NCBI RefSeq assembly: GCF_003334335.1
Contig: NZ_QOWQ01000012.1
From: Escherichia coli
GTDB taxonomy: Bacteria > Pseudomonadota > Gammaproteobacteria > Enterobacterales > Enterobacteriaceae
DNA: 64,000 nucleotides
Strand: one strand, 5' to 3'
Shown: piece after piece, positions 48,041 through 57,505 of the stretch
How the letters are laid out: each line of letters begins with the position of its first letter
Position numbering within the stretch: the first letter of the stretch is position 1
The notes under the pieces: generated by a model
Seen by the model: the letters and a program-made list of their open reading frames with translations, nothing else
The model's database searches: none
What the model was told of the DNA's origin: nothing
Translations under genes and position numbers: made by a program

Positions 48041-50545
48041 TTATTCCTTCGGTTTAAACCGCAGCAACCGGTTGGCGTTACTCACTACGGTAATCGACGA
48101 GAGCGCCATTGCCGCTCCGGCAACTACCGGGTTAAGCAGTGTTCCAGTGAACGGCCACAAAATACCGGCGGCGACCGGAATACCGATACTGTTGTAGATA
48201 AACGCACCGAGCAGGTTCTGCTTCATGTTGTGCAGCGTTGCGCGGGAAATAGCGAGCGCATCCGCAACGCCCATCAGGCTATGGCGCATCAGGGTAATCG
48301 CCGCGGTTTCAATGGCAACATCACTGCCGCCACCCATCGCAATGCCGACATCCGCCTGAGCCAGCGCTGGCGCGTCGTTAATGCCGTCGCCCACCATTGC
48401 CACCTGACGTCCTTCACTTTGCAGATGTTTGATCGCTTCGGCTTTACCGTCCGGCAGCACCCCGGCGATCACCTCATCAATCCCTGCTTCTTTGGCGATC
48501 GCATTGGCGGTGGTTGGGTTATCCCCGGTCAACATCACCAGACGATATCCCGCTTTATGCAGGCGTTGCAGCGCCGCCACGCTATCACTACGCAACGGAT
48601 CGCGTACTGCCAGCAGGGCTACCGCTTTCCCGTCAACCGCCAGCAGCACAGGCGTTGCCCCTTGCGATGCCTGAGCAGTAATCTCCGCTTCGATAGCTTT
48701 GGTACCAACCTGTTGCTCATTTAACAGCGCCTGATTGCCCAGCAATAACGCATGACCTTCAGCTTCACCGCTCACGCCCAGCCCGCGCAATGTGCGGAAA
48801 CCGTTGACCTGCGGTAGCTGCATATCACCTGCTTTATCGAGGATCGCTCGTGCCAGCGGATGGCTGGAACCTTGCTCCAGTGCCGCCGCCAGACGCAATG
48901 CCTGCGCTTCATCAACATCAGCAAATGTTTTCACTGCGACAACCTGCGGCTTCCCTTCAGTCAGCGTCCCGGTTTTATCGAACACTACAGTGTCGAGTGT
49001 ACTGGCGCGTTGCAGCGCGTCAGCGTCCCGCACCAGCACGCCAAACTCAGCCGCCCGCCCGACGCCGGAAATAATCGACATCGGCGTCGCCAGCCCCAGC
49101 GCACACGGACAGGCAATAATCAGTACCGTGGTGGCAATCACCAGGGTATAGACAATCTGCGGTGCCGGACCAAAGAAATACCAGATTGCCGCACTGACAA
49201 GCGCAATAACCACCACTACCGGCACAAATACGGCTGAGATTTTATCCGCCAGCTGACCGATTTCTGGCTTGCTGCTCTGGGCCTGGCGCACCATGCGAAT
49301 GATTCGTGACAGCGTAGTATGGCTGCCAACCGCACTGGCACGAAACAGCACACTGCCGTCCTGTACCACTGTCCCGGCATGGACGCTATCGCCTTCGCCT
49401 TTTTGCTGCGGGATTGGTTCGCCCGTCAGCATCGCTTCATCCAGCCATGCTTCGCCCTGGGTAATCTCGCCATCTACCGGCACGCGATCGCCGGTCGTCA
49501 GGCGCAGCAACATACCTGGCTGCACTTCTGCCAGAGGCACGCTTTTTTCACCTTCGTCAGTAACCAGGCGTGCCGTCGGCGGGGTTAAATCGAGTAACTT
49601 TTCCAGCGCCTTAGAAGAACGCTGGCGTGCGCGCGCTTCCAGCATATGGCCGAGATTGATCAGACCGATAATCATCGCGCTGGCTTCGTAATAAAGATGT
49701 CGCGCTTCCATCGGGAACCACTGCGGCCACAGGTTGACGCTCATCGAATAGAGCCACGCCACGCCAGTACCCAGCGCCACCAGCGTATCCATCGTCGCCG
49801 CACCGTTCAGCAGGCTTTTCCATGCACTGCGGTAAAAATGGCCGCCGGCGAAAACCATCACTGCCAGGGTTATCAGGCCGATAACCAACCACAGGCTGCG
49901 GTTGTCAGCGGTGACCATCATGTTATCGCCGATCATCCCCCAGACCATCACCGGGATACCCACCGCCAGTGCGACAATTGCCTGCCAGCGGAAGCGCTTC
50001 ATCGTAGCGACGGCGGTTTCTTGCTGGCGCTCGCGGCGTTTAGCGTCATCTTCAATCGCTTCCGCGCCGTAGCCCGCTTTTTCCACCGCCTGCACTAAAT
50101 CTTGTGGGGAGGCACTGCCCATCACCAGCGCAGTACGCTCCGCCAGGTTTACCCGTGCCTGAGTGACGCCCGGTACGCTTTGCAGCGCATTTTGTACGCG
50201 GGTGACACAGCTGGCGCAGCTCATGCCGCTCAGCAGCAACTGCTGGCTGTCATCGTCATCGGCGGTCGCTGCCGGAAGCGCCTCAGAAACCGCTGTCAGT
50301 GCTTCCGACGGGATTGATGACTCCGCCAGCGGTTTAGCCTTTGGGTGGCTTACAGATGCGTCATAACCCGCTTGTTTGATGGTTTCGATCAGCTGTTCTG
50401 CACTGGCAGTCCCGGTAACGTGCGCTTCAGTGATAGACACATCCGCCTGCTCAACATCCGGACGCTGTTCAAGACTTTCTTTCACGCGTTTAACGCAGTG
50501 ACCGCAGGACAGGCCGTCCAGGGTCAGGTCGATAGTTTGTGACAT
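48041..50545 (-). CDS. copA: Cu(I)-translocating P1B-type ATPase CopA
   Basis: 834 aa; two N-terminal CxxC metal-binding domains (GLSCGHC, GMSCASC), CPC transmembrane motif, DKTGT phosphorylation site. Confidence 0.95.
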
Positions 50546-50584
50546 AAAACACTCCTTTAAGACAGTTTTGACTGGCTGTGATAA

Positions 50585-50615
50585 AGGTTAAACCTTCCAG
50601 CAAGGGGAAGGTCAA
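50585..50615 (-). promoter_or_regulatory. copA promoter with CueR (MerR-type) operator in a 19-bp spacer
   Basis: Minus strand reads TTGACC (-35, 50610-50615), 19-nt spacer containing the dyad CCTTCC-N7-GGAAGG (50593-50611), then TAACCT (-10, 50585-50590), ~40 bp upstream of the copA ATG at 50545. Confidence 0.8.
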
Positions 50616-50806
50616 GAAATTAATAAACCAGGCGGGTAAAAGTCCGTAAAGATTAAAAAATCGGCTCGATTTGCATCAGGATTAGACATTTATCTCTTTG
50701 TTTTCCTGTAGTTAAGTTGCGGGTGCTAAGTTAAATCAGGATGCCTGAAAATCGGCACCGGGGTGAGGAATTACCTCCCGCATCTATAAAAAGGAGTTAA
50801 CAAAAG

Positions 50807-51739
50807 ATGTTAGATGCAAACAAATTACAGCAGGCAGTGGATCAGGCTTACACCCAATTTCACTCACTTAACGGCGGACAAAATGCCGATTACATTCCCT
50901 TTCTGGCGAATGTACCAGGTCAACTGGCGGCAGTGGCTATCGTGACCTGCGATGGCAACGTCTATAGTGCGGGTGACAGTGATTACCGCTTTGCACTGGA
51001 ATCCATCTCGAAAGTCTGTACGTTAGCCCTTGCGTTAGAAGATGTCGGCCCGCAGGCGGTACAGGACAAAATTGGCGCTGACCCGACCGGATTGCCCTTT
51101 AACTCAGTTATCGCCTTAGAGTTGCATGGCGGCAAACCGCTTTCGCCACTGGTAAATGCTGGCGCTATTGCCACCACCAGCCTGATTAACGCTGAAAATG
51201 TTGAACAACGCTGGCAGCGAATTTTACATATCCAACAGCAACTGGCTGGCGAGCAGGTAGCGCTCTCTGACGAAGTCAACCAGTCGGAACAAACAACCAA
51301 CTTCCATAACCGGGCCATAGCCTGGCTGCTGTACTCCGCCGGATATCTCTATTGTGATGCAATGGAAGCCTGTGACGTGTATACCCGTCAGTGCTCCACG
51401 CTCCTCAATACTATTGAACTGGCAACGCTTGGCGCGACGCTGGCGGCAGGTGGTGTGAATCCGTTGACGCATAAACGCGTTCTTCAGGCCGACAACGTGC
51501 CGTACATTCTGGCCGAAATGATGATGGAAGGGCTGTATGGTCGCTCCGGTGACTGGGCGTATCGTGTTGGTTTACCGGGCAAAAGCGGTGTAGGTGGCGG
51601 TATTCTGGCGGTCGTCCCTGGAGTGATGGGAATTGCCGCGTTCTCACCACCGCTGGACGAAGATGGCAACAGTGTTCGCGGTCAAAAAATGGTGGCATCG
51701 GTCGCTAAGCAACTCGGCTATAACGTGTTTAAGGGCTGA
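50807..51739 (+). CDS. glsA: Glutaminase 1
   Basis: 310 aa; MLDANKLQQAVDQAYTQFHSLNGGQNADYIPFLANVPGQLAAVAIVTCDGNVYSAGD (serine-dependent glutaminase family). Confidence 0.9.
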   Translation: MLDANKLQQAVDQAYTQFHSLNGGQNADYIPFLANVPGQLAAVAIVTCDGNVYSAGDSDYRFALESISKVCTLALALEDVGPQAVQDKIGADPTGLPFNSVIALELHGGKPLSPLVNAGAIATTSLINAENVEQRWQRILHIQQQLAGEQVALSDEVNQSEQTTNFHNRAIAWLLYSAGYLYCDAMEACDVYTRQCSTLLNTIELATLGATLAAGGVNPLTHKRVLQADNVPYILAEMMMEGLYGRSGDWAYRVGLPGKSGVGGGILAVVPGVMGIAAFSPPLDEDGNSVRGQKMVASVAKQLGYNVFKG

Positions 51740-51741
51740 TC

Positions 51742-53034
51742 ATGATGAACACGGAAGGTAATAACGGTAACAAACCTCTCGGTCTATGGAACGTCGTTTC
51801 CATCGGCATTGGGGCAATGGTGGGGGCGGGGATCTTCGCGCTGCTGGGGCAGGCTGCATTGCTAATGGAAGCCTCGACCTGGGTCGCCTTTGCTTTTGGC
51901 GGTATTGTGGCGATGTTTTCCGGTTATGCCTATGCGCGTCTGGGGGCGAGCTATCCCAGCAATGGCGGCATTATCGACTTCTTTCGTCGCGGATTAGGCA
52001 ACGGCGTCTTTTCGCTGGCGCTCTCGTTACTGTACCTGTTGACGCTGGCGGTGAGCATCGCCATGGTCGCCCGTGCTTTTGGCGCTTATGCCGTGCAGTT
52101 TTTGCATGAAGGCAGCCAGGAGGAGCACCTTATTTTGCTCTACGCGTTGGGGATCATTGCGGTGATGACGCTTTTCAACTCCTTAAGCAACCATGCGGTA
52201 GGGCGGCTGGAAGTGATCCTCGTCGGCATTAAAATGATGATCCTGTTATTGCTGATTATTGCCGGTGTCTGGTCGCTGCAACCGGCGCATATTTCCGTCT
52301 CTGCGCCCCCCAGCTCCGGTGCGTTCTTCTCCTGTATTGGGATAACTTTCCTTGCCTATGCGGGCTTTGGCATGATGGCGAACGCGGCGGATAAAGTGAA
52401 AGATCCGCAGGTCATTATGCCACGGGCGTTTCTGGTGGCGATTGGCGTTACCACGTTGCTTTATATCTCGCTGGCACTGGTTTTGCTTAGCGATGTATCG
52501 GCATTAGAGTTAGAAAAATATGCCGATACCGCCGTAGCGCAGGCTGCTTCTCCGCTGCTCGGGCATGTGGGTTATGTGATCGTCGTCATCGGCGCTTTAC
52601 TGGCGACGGCTTCAGCCATTAACGCGAACCTGTTCGCCGTGTTTAACATCATGGACAACATGGGCAGCGAACGCGAACTGCCGAAGCTAATGAATAAATC
52701 CCTGTGGCGGCAGAGTACCTGGGGCAACATTATTGTCGTGGTGTTGATTATGCTGATGACGGCGGCACTGAATTTAGGCTCACTCGCCAGCGTTGCCAGC
52801 GCCACCTTTTTGATTTGCTACCTGGCGGTGTTTGTGGTGGCGATCCGCCTGCGTCATGATATTCACGCCTCGTTGCCGATTCTTATCGTTGGTACGTTGG
52901 TGATGTTGTTGGTGATCGTTGGCTTTATCTACAGTCTGTGGTCCCAGGGTAGCCGTGCGTTGATATGGATTATTGGCTCACTCTTACTCAGCCTTATTGT
53001 GGCAATGGTCATGAAGCGCAATAAAACCGTATAA
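51742..53034 (+). CDS. ybaT: APC-superfamily amino-acid transporter YbaT
   Basis: 430 aa, 12 predicted TM segments; starts 3 nt after the glsA stop, so probably an operon. Confidence 0.85.
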   Translation: MMNTEGNNGNKPLGLWNVVSIGIGAMVGAGIFALLGQAALLMEASTWVAFAFGGIVAMFSGYAYARLGASYPSNGGIIDFFRRGLGNGVFSLALSLLYLLTLAVSIAMVARAFGAYAVQFLHEGSQEEHLILLYALGIIAVMTLFNSLSNHAVGRLEVILVGIKMMILLLLIIAGVWSLQPAHISVSAPPSSGAFFSCIGITFLAYAGFGMMANAADKVKDPQVIMPRAFLVAIGVTTLLYISLALVLLSDVSALELEKYADTAVAQAASPLLGHVGYVIVVIGALLATASAINANLFAVFNIMDNMGSERELPKLMNKSLWRQSTWGNIIVVVLIMLMTAALNLGSLASVASATFLICYLAVFVVAIRLRHDIHASLPILIVGTLVMLLVIVGFIYSLWSQGSRALIWIIGSLLLSLIVAMVMKRNKTV

Positions 53035-53158
53035 CATCTCTCTGTGCGCAGTACTTCCTGTATTATTGTGGTGGCGGTCGATATTCGCACTGGCAAAAAA
53101 ACGTGCTTGAATATCTGTTGAAACCCTTTAACAAAGCACAGGAGGCGTTGCGCGAACG

Positions 53159-53566
53159 ATGAACATCAGCGATGTAGCAAAAATTACCGGCCTGACCAGC
53201 AAAGCCATTCGCTTCTATGAAGAGAAGGGGCTGGTGACGCCGCCGATGCGCAGCGAAAACGGTTATCGCACCTACACGCAGCAGCATCTCAACGAACTGA
53301 CCTTACTGCGCCAGGCACGGCAGGTGGGCTTTAACCTGGAAGAGAGCGGCGAGCTGGTGAATCTGTTTAACGACCCGCAGCGGCACAGCGCCGACGTCAA
53401 ACGGCGCACGCTGGAGAAGGTGGCGGAGATCGAACGACACATTGAGGAGCTGCAATCCATGCGCGACCAGCTGCTGGCACTGGCGAATGCCTGCCCTGGC
53501 GATGACAGCGCCGACTGCCCGATTATCGAAAATCTCTCCGGCTGCTGTCATCATCGGGCAGGGTGA
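53159..53566 (+). CDS. cueR: MerR-family Cu(I)-responsive regulator CueR
   Basis: 135 aa; [26 protein letters not shown] (MerR HTH); C-terminal metal-binding cysteines ([10 protein letters not shown]). Confidence 0.95.
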
Positions 53567-54025
53567 TTAAGACGAGACGGCTCGGATATGTAGGGTTATC
53601 CCTTCTATCGCAATGACTTCAACATGCGTACCTGCACCGAGATCCTCGCTGGCGCTGACAGGCCATGAACTGTCACCGACGCGCATATGACCGCGCCCGT
53701 TGACCAGCGGAGATTCCAGCACAAAACGTCGGCCAATCAGCTGCTGCCCGCGCTGGTTTAAATGACTATCGCTGTGCTTTTGTTCGCGCACCCGCCGCGA
53801 CAACCATTTCCACCACAGCCAGGCGGCGAGCAGCGTCAGGATGGCAAACATTACCCCTTGCCACTCCCAACCCAGCGGCACCAGCCAGACCACCAGGCCG
53901 GTAATCACCGCTGCCACGCCGCTCCACAACAAATAACCATTTCCGCCCAGCATCTCGGCTGCCAGCAGCAAACCGCCGAGACTGAGCCAGAAAATATGTG
54001 GATGAACGACCATTAACTCCATCAT
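53567..54025 (-). CDS. ybbJ: NfeD-like membrane protein (partner of SPFH protein QmcA)
   Basis: 152 aa; N-terminal TM helices and C-terminal OB-fold-like region; overlaps the qmcA stop by 4 nt. Confidence 0.8.
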
Positions 54026-54939
54026 GGCTGAGTCCGTTTGTTGGCGCTGTCTTTCACCAGCTCGGCAATCCCGGCAATCGACCCCATCAGGCTGCTGGCC
54101 TCTAATGGCATCATCACTACTTTGCTGTTACTGGAGGAACCGATCTGCTGTAACGCTTCGGTGTATTTCTGCGCTACGAAGTAGTTCACCGCCTGAATAT
54201 CACCGGAGGCGATAGCTTCAGACACCATTTTGGTGGCGCGGGCTTCTGCTTCGGCGGAACGTTCACGCGCTTCAGCCTGTAAAAACGCCGACTGACGTTC
54301 GCCTTCCGCTTTCAGGATTTGCGACTGTTTTTCACCTTCGGCTTTGAGGATTTCCGCCTGACGGATCCCTTCCGCTTCAAGAATGTAAGCGCGTTTGGTA
54401 CGTTCCGCTTTCATCTGCGCGTTCATTGAAGAGATAAGCTCTGCCGGTGGGCGCACGTCGCGAATTTCAATACGGGTGACTTTAATCCCCCACGGGTTGG
54501 TGGCTTCATCGACAATACGCAGCAGGCGTGAGTTGATGCTGTCGCGCTGAGAGAGCATTTCGTCAAGTTCCATTGAACCCAGCACGGTACGGATGTTAGT
54601 CATGGTCAGGTTGATGATCGCCAGCTCCAGATTGCTGACTTCATAAGCCGCGCGCGGCGCGTCAATCACCTGAATAAAGCACACGGCGTCGATGGTAACG
54701 TTGGCGTTATCTTTCGAGATAACTTCCTGGGAAGGGATATCGAGCACTTGCTCCATCATATTGATCTTGCGACCAATGCGATCCATAAACGGCACCACCA
54801 GACTGAGCCCCGGCTGTAACGTTTTGGTATAGCGACCAAAGCGTTCTACTGTCCACTGATAGCCCTGCGGTACGATTTTGACACCCGCGCCGACAATGAC
54901 CAGCGCGACAAAAATGAGAATCGGGATAAAGATAAGCAT
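54022..54939 (-). CDS. qmcA: SPFH/stomatin-prohibitin-family protein QmcA
   Basis: 305 aa; N-terminal TM anchor [23 protein letters not shown] then band-7 domain and EA-rich coiled coil ([29 protein letters not shown]). Confidence 0.85.
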
Positions 54940-55084
54940 CGGAAAAACCTCCTGTTGTACCGTCCATAATCAGCAAAATTGCTGCTTGATTAAACAAATT
55001 ATACCTGATTACTGAAAGAGAGTTCCCCCTTATTCCTGCGAAGGATAAACTGTTTTTAGTAAAAATCAGAAAAAGGGAACAGCG

Positions 55085-55762
55085 ATGCAGGAAAATAGTC
55101 CTTTGCTTCAGCTACAAAACGTAGGATATCTGGCGGGTGATGCGAAGATTCTTAATAACATCAATTTTTCGCTGCGTGCTGGCGAATTTAAGTTAATTAC
55201 CGGTCCTTCTGGTTGTGGCAAAAGTACGCTGCTAAAAATAGTTGCTTCATTGATCAGCCCAACCAGCGGAACGTTACTGTTTGAAGGTGAGGATGTCAGC
55301 ACACTAAAGCCAGAAATCTACCGCCAACAAGTCTCTTACTGCGCCCAGACACCGACGCTGTTTGGCGATACGGTATACGATAATCTGATCTTTCCCTGGC
55401 AGATCCGTAACCGGCAGCCTGACCCAGCCATTTTTCTCGATTTTCTCGAACGCTTCGCCTTGCCGGACAGCATTTTGACGAAGAATATCGCCGAGCTATC
55501 TGGTGGTGAAAAACAACGCATCTCATTGATTCGTAACCTGCAATTTATGCCGAAGGTTTTATTGCTGGATGAAATAACCAGTGCGCTGGATGAAAGTAAT
55601 AAACATAACGTCAATGAGATGATCCATCGTTATGTGCGCGAGCAAAATATTGCCGTGCTGTGGGTGACACACGATAAAGACGAAATTAATCATGCGGATA
55701 AAGTGATTACACTGCAACCGCATGCCGGAGAAATGCAGGAAGCACGCTATGAACTCGCATAA
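55085..55762 (+). CDS. fetA: ABC transporter ATP-binding protein FetA (YbbL)
   Basis: 225 aa; Walker A GPSGCGKST, signature LSGGEKQR, Walker B LLLDE. Confidence 0.85.
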   Translation: MQENSPLLQLQNVGYLAGDAKILNNINFSLRAGEFKLITGPSGCGKSTLLKIVASLISPTSGTLLFEGEDVSTLKPEIYRQQVSYCAQTPTLFGDTVYDNLIFPWQIRNRQPDPAIFLDFLERFALPDSILTKNIAELSGGEKQRISLIRNLQFMPKVLLLDEITSALDESNKHNVNEMIHRYVREQNIAVLWVTHDKDEINHADKVITLQPHAGEMQEARYELA

Positions 55763-56528
55763 TATTACTAACGAATCATTAGCACTGGCATTAATGCTGG
55801 TGGTGGTGGCAATCTTAATTAGCCATAAAGAAAAACTGGCGCTGGAGAAAGATATTCTCTGGAGCGTCGGGCGAGCGATAATTCAGCTGATTATTGTCGG
55901 CTATGTGCTGAAGTATATTTTCAGCGTGGATGATGCCAGCCTGACATTATTGATGGTGTTATTTATCTGCTTTAATGCGGCGTGGAACGCGCAAAAACGC
56001 AGTAAATATATTGCTAAAGCTTTTATCTCATCGTTTATTGCCATTACGGTCGGGGCGGGAATTACCCTGGCGGTGCTGATTCTCTCAGGGTCGATTGAAT
56101 TTATCCCGATGCAGGTGATCCCTATCGCCGGGATGATTGCCGGTAACGCCATGGTAGCGGTGGGGTTGTGTTACAACAATTTAGGGCAACGGGTCATTAG
56201 CGAACAGCAACAGATTCAGGAGAAACTGAGTCTTGGTGCGACGCCGAAGCAGGCTTCAGCGATATTGATTCGCGACAGTATTCGCGCGGCTTTAATTCCG
56301 ACGGTCGATTCAGCAAAAACGGTTGGCTTAGTGAGTTTACCAGGAATGATGTCCGGGCTGATATTTGCCGGGATTGATCCGGTGAAGGCGATTAAATATC
56401 AGATTATGGTGACCTTTATGCTGCTCTCAACCGCCAGCTTGTCGACCATTATTGCCTGCTATTTAACCTATCGTAAGTTTTATAATTCGCGCCACCAGTT
56501 GGTGGTGACGCAATTGAAGAAGAAATGA
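55749..56528 (+). CDS. fetB: Iron-export ABC permease FetB (YbbM, UPF0014)
   Basis: Track ORF 268 aa; ATG at 55749 gives 259 aa MNSHNITNESLALALMLVVVAILISHKEK...; overlaps the fetA 3' end by 14 nt. Confidence 0.8.
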   Translation: MNSHNITNESLALALMLVVVAILISHKEKLALEKDILWSVGRAIIQLIIVGYVLKYIFSVDDASLTLLMVLFICFNAAWNAQKRSKYIAKAFISSFIAITVGAGITLAVLILSGSIEFIPMQVIPIAGMIAGNAMVAVGLCYNNLGQRVISEQQQIQEKLSLGATPKQASAILIRDSIRAALIPTVDSAKTVGLVSLPGMMSGLIFAGIDPVKAIKYQIMVTFMLLSTASLSTIIACYLTYRKFYNSRHQLVVTQLKKK

Positions 56529-56590
56529 TGCGATGCCGGATGCGCAGCATCGCATCCGGCGTTGTGGTTCATGTGCCGATCAACGGAATA

Positions 56591-57487
<897 letters not shown>

Positions 57488-57505
57488 TTAAGCGCGCGCT
57501 TCAAC

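Follow-up and report, generated by a model that had tools for sequence, protein, structure and literature searches.

The qmcA-ybbJ operon on the Escherichia coli chromosome, encoding a stomatin-like SPFH protein and its short NfeD-family partner

The window, a stretch of 64,000 nucleotides from Escherichia coli (contig NZ_QOWQ01000012.1 of assembly GCF_003334335.1), carries at positions 53567-54939 what is almost certainly the chromosomal qmcA-ybbJ operon of this species. Listing of the orfs over 51500-57000 returned two minus-strand orfs at exactly the coordinates given by the initial annotation, which had been made from the DNA letters alone: qmcA (also known as ybbK; 54022-54939), encoding a stomatin-like SPFH/Band-7 protein of 305 aa (RefSeq WP_000904502.1), and ybbJ (53567-54025), encoding a short NfeD-family inner membrane protein of 152 aa (RefSeq WP_000970323.1). 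The initial annotation had identified the products as QmcA and YbbJ, and in RefSeq the same DNA is annotated as qmcA, for an "SPFH domain-containing protein", and ybbJ, for an "NfeD family protein". The 4-nt overlap that it had reported between the two genes can be read directly at 54022-54025 on the minus strand, where the junction ...CAG CCA TGA TGG AG... holds the TGA stop codon of qmcA and the ATG start codon of ybbJ with four bases in common (ATGA). Because of this ATGA arrangement, the two genes are probably translationally coupled, as had been proposed. A strong Shine-Dalgarno sequence (AGGAGG, 54948-54953, minus strand), likewise read from the sequence, lies 8 nt upstream of the ATG of qmcA. 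The description of the pair as a conserved SPFH-NfeD operon architecture also holds: according to PMC2636767, the operons of 229 of 353 SPFH1 members include an NfeD gene.

The assignment of the locus to qmcA-ybbJ follows from its gene order and from the 2-kb stretch 53100-55100, which has 100% DNA identity to many E. coli chromosomes annotated with qmcA and ybbJ. The annotated gene order in strain ER1709 is copA, glsA, ybaT, cueR, ybbJ, qmcA, fetA, fetB and cnoX, and the neighbours CueR, FetA and FetB each score above the curated NCBIfam cut-offs. A chance resemblance is excluded by this DNA identity together with the E-values of the Band_7 (1.9e-39) and NfeD (5.1e-12) matches described below.

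In the surroundings (approximately 50000-57500) lie genes with metal and redox functions: copA, the copper-sensing regulator cueR, the iron efflux genes fetAB and the chaperedoxin gene cnoX. The fetB orf extends over 55722-56528 (268 aa), and RefSeq starts the gene at approximately 55749, with a 14-nt overlap with fetA; alignment to the FetB model of NCBIfam begins at residue 10 of the 268-aa orf, in agreement with the shorter annotated gene. Between ybaT and cueR (approximately 53065-53162), RefSeq annotates a pseudogene fragment of a "hypothetical protein", frameshifted and truncated at the N-terminus, that overlaps the start of cueR by a few bases.

The QmcA protein begins with a hydrophobic membrane anchor (approximately residues 1-25; 54865-54939, minus strand), for which the 19-residue Kyte-Doolittle means are 2.0-3.0 in windows starting at residues 1-8; residues 1-27 are strongly hydrophobic, with means of up to 3.03. 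The anchor is followed by the SPFH/Band_7 domain (residues 21-191; 54367-54879, minus strand), which matches model positions 1-174 of 176 of Pfam PF01145 with an E-value of 1.9e-39. From its composition, a Glu/Ala-rich helical region was placed at residues 171-240 (54220-54429, minus strand): glutamate and alanine make up 37% of these residues vs 19% of the whole protein, proline is absent, and the motif ILKAEGE(K/R)QS is repeated. This region probably corresponds to the wall of helices in SPFH cages of known structure. A match to the Band_7_C model of Pfam covers residues 238-296 (E = 0.001). The initial annotation had credited the protein with a Band_7 domain, an N-terminal anchor and a Glu/Ala-rich coiled coil; the domain and the anchor are both found, and the coiled coil has its counterpart in the proline-free stretch of residues 171-240, described here as helical.

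The YbbJ protein has a hydrophobic N-terminal part (approximately residues 4-75; 53801-54016, minus strand) with predicted transmembrane helices. Kyte-Doolittle windows exceed 1.6 at residues 4-22 and 30-55, and a third, tryptophan-rich hydrophobic stretch at approximately residues 57-75, which stays below the 1.6 threshold, was recognized by eye in the sequence. A polar linker leads from these stretches to the C-terminal domain, the partner-binding beta domain of NfeD proteins (residues 94-148; 53582-53746, minus strand), which matches model positions 2-56 of 57 of Pfam PF01957 with an E-value of 5.1e-12; the NMR structure 2K5H gives a weak match over the same residues. The NfeD membership expected for the partner protein is thereby confirmed, and the OB-fold-like region that had been placed at its C-terminus is this OB-like beta domain, the fold of which has been solved in a chain of identical sequence (PDB 8Z5G, chain B).

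Two forms of NfeD protein have to be distinguished. The short form is about 140-150 aa long with three N-terminal hydrophobic stretches (PMC2636767), and YbbJ, with 152 aa and three such stretches (the third below the threshold), fits this form. The long form (NfeD1b, the STOPP protease form) was considered for YbbJ and rejected: the protein has only 152 aa and lacks an N-terminal ClpP-like serine protease domain. NfeD was the sole significant Pfam domain, with no ClpP or other peptidase domain among the matches, and the NCBIfam search gave no match. One publication terms YbbJ a "long NfeD protein" (PMC13086221), a wording that its sequence does not support.

Among proteins of solved structure, the closest relatives of QmcA after itself are PH1511 of Pyrococcus horikoshii (2.8e-35) and human stomatin (4e-29); HflK (4e-14), HflC (8e-07) and the flotillins (about 1e-4) are more distant. 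Membership of the HflK family was rejected at 78.9 bits vs a cut-off of 159.4 (NCBIfam TIGR01933), of the HflC family at 43.8 bits vs 134.4 (TIGR01932), and of the flotillins at 35.8 bits vs 700 (NF058507, FloT), the Pfam Flot model giving an E-value of only 0.0058. Judged by sequence, QmcA is thus to be classified as a stomatin-like SPFH1a protein and not as HflK, HflC or a flotillin. This agrees with the literature, where YbbK is placed among the prokaryotic stomatins (SPFH1a), with a short, protease-less NfeD1a protein as its partner (PMC2636767). QmcA has the features of the SPFH superfamily, namely the Band_7 domain, the N-terminal anchor with the helical region, and assembly into a large cage oligomer (8Z5G), and it has the pairing feature of SPFH1a, the short NfeD gene ybbJ immediately downstream with the ATGA overlap. 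The statement of one paper that QmcA could count as a "bona fide flotillin" is not supported by these scores.

The structure of the complex is already known. QmcA residues 1-305 are identical to chain A ("Protein QmcA") and YbbJ residues 1-152 to chain B ("Inner membrane protein YbbJ") of PDB 8Z5G, which contains 26 chains of each protein and which secondary sources attribute to the cryo-EM work of Tan et al. 2024 (Structure 32:1603). The QmcA (YbbK)-YbbJ pair of E. coli K-12 represented by 8Z5G has the same full-length sequences, the same gene order and the same neighbours as the pair in the window; it is the same locus, with no difference. PMC13086221 and PMC12478178 describe the complex as a closed cage on the inner membrane, built of 26 QmcA-YbbJ heterodimers and projecting into the cytoplasm. 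Modelling of the pair with AlphaFold-multimer, which had been suggested as a check, is redundant now that the 26:26 complex of the identical proteins has been solved experimentally by cryo-EM. In the cryo-EM structure, the transmembrane helices of YbbJ are said to bridge neighbouring QmcA subunits, and the NfeD/OB domain of YbbJ reportedly packs against the SPFH domain of QmcA.

A possible sequence of events from gene to cage can be outlined. The two genes would be co-transcribed from the divergent spacer between qmcA and fetA, and coupled translation through the ATGA overlap would suit a 1:1 stoichiometry of QmcA and YbbJ. The 26 N-terminal helices of QmcA, together with the helices of YbbJ, may fence off a patch of the bilayer, and the Glu/Ala-rich helices of QmcA may provide both the wall of the cage and its cap. 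The assembled cage may then function as a scaffold, either in the quality control of membrane proteins or in the organization of microdomains.

The spacer between the divergent genes qmcA and fetA (54940-55084, 145 bp as judged by the gene positions) presumably holds the promoters of both. Binding of the RpoD holoenzyme is listed for the qmcA-ybbJ / ybbLM spacer, with no hexamers given (PMC3946193). A consensus scan of 53100-55150 found no sigma-70-like site in the spacer; the scanned region as a whole contained one promoter-like site, where 1.4 are expected by chance, and this site is antisense inside cueR. No Rfam family matched within 52900-55300 at E-values of up to 0.1. The spacer is present at 99% identity or more in 5417 genomes. 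It differs at two of its 145 nucleotides (98.6% identity) from that of a divergent E. coli lineage represented by a single comparison genome, a blood-culture isolate (L002), for which the corresponding identities are 97.4% for qmcA and 98.5% for fetA; unusual conservation of the spacer was considered and dismissed, 98.6% being unremarkable for so short a stretch.

At the other end of the operon, the stop codons of the convergent genes cueR (plus strand) and ybbJ (minus strand) abut with no spacer at 53564-53569, TGA being followed by TTA (the complement of TAA), so that a terminator for either of the two transcripts would have to be located within the opposite gene. In the scan of 53100-55150, no canonical terminator was detected immediately downstream of ybbJ. 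A stretch of 160 nt, beginning a little before the ybbJ stop codon and extending into cueR antisense, can fold into a long hairpin in the antisense strand of the cueR 3' end, the stability of which is not significant relative to shuffled sequences (z = -1.4). The cueR/ybbJ junction (approximately 53560-53575) varies among strains: the stretch 53100-55100 is in one piece in 4007 of 5425 genomes, whereas the qmcA-ybbJ pair itself is unbroken in 5419, and in two divergent lineages accessory genes adjoin ybbJ in place of cueR. In L002, a hypothetical gene of 1224 nt and a REP-like palindrome lie beside the ybbJ stop codon, and in the other (L003) a YadA-family adhesin gene and a hypothetical gene are found there. 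Judging from these two examples, the break would fall at the cueR/ybbJ junction in each of the remaining genomes, which number roughly 1400.

Compared with 5426 complete E. coli genomes, the 1373-bp qmcA-ybbJ pair is matched in 5422, at identities of about 96% to 100%, and it counts as present, with at least 80% of its length in one place, in 5419 of the 5426. The matches amount to 5427 places, two of them on records classed as plasmids and not as chromosomes. Compared with L002, qmcA has 24 nucleotide differences and no amino acid differences, and ybbJ has 26 nucleotide differences and three amino acid differences (H146I, S151I and S152A), all of them confined to the seven C-terminal residues, and the ATGA overlap is kept. 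By these comparisons, qmcA-ybbJ is a core pair under purifying selection. In a few natural E. coli strains, insertions of IS1 or ISVsa5 split qmcA into two annotated SPFH fragments, which suggests that qmcA is dispensable in the backgrounds that bear them, in agreement with the reported absence of a growth phenotype; under laboratory conditions the pair is accordingly dispensable.

Comparison with other SPFH systems brings out what is particular to the pair. The stomatins of P. horikoshii (PH1511) and human share with QmcA the N-terminal anchor, the SPFH domain and the helical region, but the NfeD partner of the archaeal stomatin has a ClpP-like protease domain, which YbbJ lacks. To our knowledge, human stomatin has no NfeD partner. 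The cages of human stomatin (PDB 9OH9 and 9WMJ) have 16 chains vs 26 for QmcA. The HflK/HflC-FtsH complex (PDB 7VHP and 7WI3) belongs to the same superfamily, assembles into a 24-subunit cage and, as is reported for QmcA, has a link to FtsH; however, HflKC faces the periplasm whereas QmcA faces the cytoplasm, and HflKC combines two SPFH proteins in a hetero-oligomer with no NfeD partner whereas QmcA pairs with the NfeD protein YbbJ. The flotillin-type SPFH2/NfeD2 pairs, YqiK-YqiJ of E. coli and FloT(YuaG)-YuaF of Bacillus subtilis, are also encoded by operons of an SPFH gene and a short NfeD gene and also face the cytoplasm, but they constitute a subfamily different from that of QmcA, which matches flotillins at only about 1e-4. 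In addition, the NfeD gene comes first in yqiJK, whereas the SPFH gene comes first in qmcA-ybbJ.

With respect to function, QmcA has been located in the inner membrane, facing the cytoplasm, in punctate foci, and neither single nor quadruple deletions of SPFH genes caused a defect in growth or biofilm formation. One possibility, which we hold tentatively and short of probable, is that the QmcA-YbbJ cage is an accessory of FtsH/HtpX quality control, a cytoplasmic counterpart of HflKC that holds or presents misfolded membrane proteins. According to a summary in PMC2636767, multicopy qmcA rescues the otherwise lethal double deletion of ftsH and htpX, and QmcA interacts with FtsH; QmcA is also listed as upregulated upon depletion of YidC (PMC7618853), and HflK (4e-14) is its next-closest solved relative after the stomatins. 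However, the aminoglycoside and oxidative stress phenotypes of the SPFH mutant have been assigned to HflKC alone and not to QmcA, and QmcA scores far below the curated cut-offs for HflK and HflC. It is also conceivable, though again not to be called probable, that the pair forms a general lipid-microdomain ("raft") scaffold that sorts lipids such as cardiolipin and cargo proteins with no dedicated link to a protease. Enrichment of QmcA in detergent-resistant membranes and its discrete foci (PMC6788730) are consistent with such a scaffold, as are the alteration of the foci in the clsABC cardiolipin-synthase mutant and the interpretation of other SPFH cages as membrane compartmentalizers, but the same literature calls detergent resistance a debatable proxy for microdomains, and the study of SPFH mutants reported no deletion phenotype.

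Two further readings have little in their favour. A stomatin/protease pair of the archaeal type, in which a ClpP-like NfeD partner cleaves the stomatin as in PH1510/PH1511 of P. horikoshii, would be in keeping with the homologous operon pairing and with the rank of PH1511 as the closest solved relative of QmcA apart from itself (2.8e-35). This model is inapplicable because YbbJ has no ClpP-like protease domain: at 152 aa, with no peptidase detected by Pfam and no NCBIfam match, it corresponds to the short, protease-less NfeD protein that is the partner of SPFH1a (PMC2636767), and we consider cleavage of QmcA by its partner scarcely credible. It is very unlikely that the pair plays a part in phage resistance or in a quorum-eavesdropping response. 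The Salmonella orthologues srgKJ (ybbKJ) are under the control of SdiA and AHL (PMC11619404), and the same paper reports a Tn-seq study that implicated srgK in phage resistance; but among four E. coli fusions only fepE was regulated by sdiA and the qmcA-ybbJ reporter was not (PMC11619404), neither protein matched any of 5027 PADLOC defence models (PADLOC-DB 2.0, E-values of up to 0.01), and the pair belongs to the core genome (5419 of 5426 genomes), in contrast to typical defence islands, which are variable. More broadly, a specific client or conditional role of the cage, whether in phage resistance or an SdiA-linked response or in some connection with copA, cueR, fetAB and cnoX, may exist but is improbable.

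The locus is therefore not a new one: because its sequence and gene order are those of annotated E. coli chromosomes, it is the known qmcA-ybbJ operon, a structurally solved, core housekeeping locus of E. coli. The alleles in the window are exactly of the K-12 type that has already been cloned, localized, deleted and solved by cryo-EM, and their sequence adds nothing new to the picture. Cages of SPFH proteins (stomatin, prohibitin, flotillin, erlin and HflKC among them) serve universally to fence off patches of membrane, and QmcA-YbbJ is the reference structure for the way in which an NfeD partner joins an SPFH cage.
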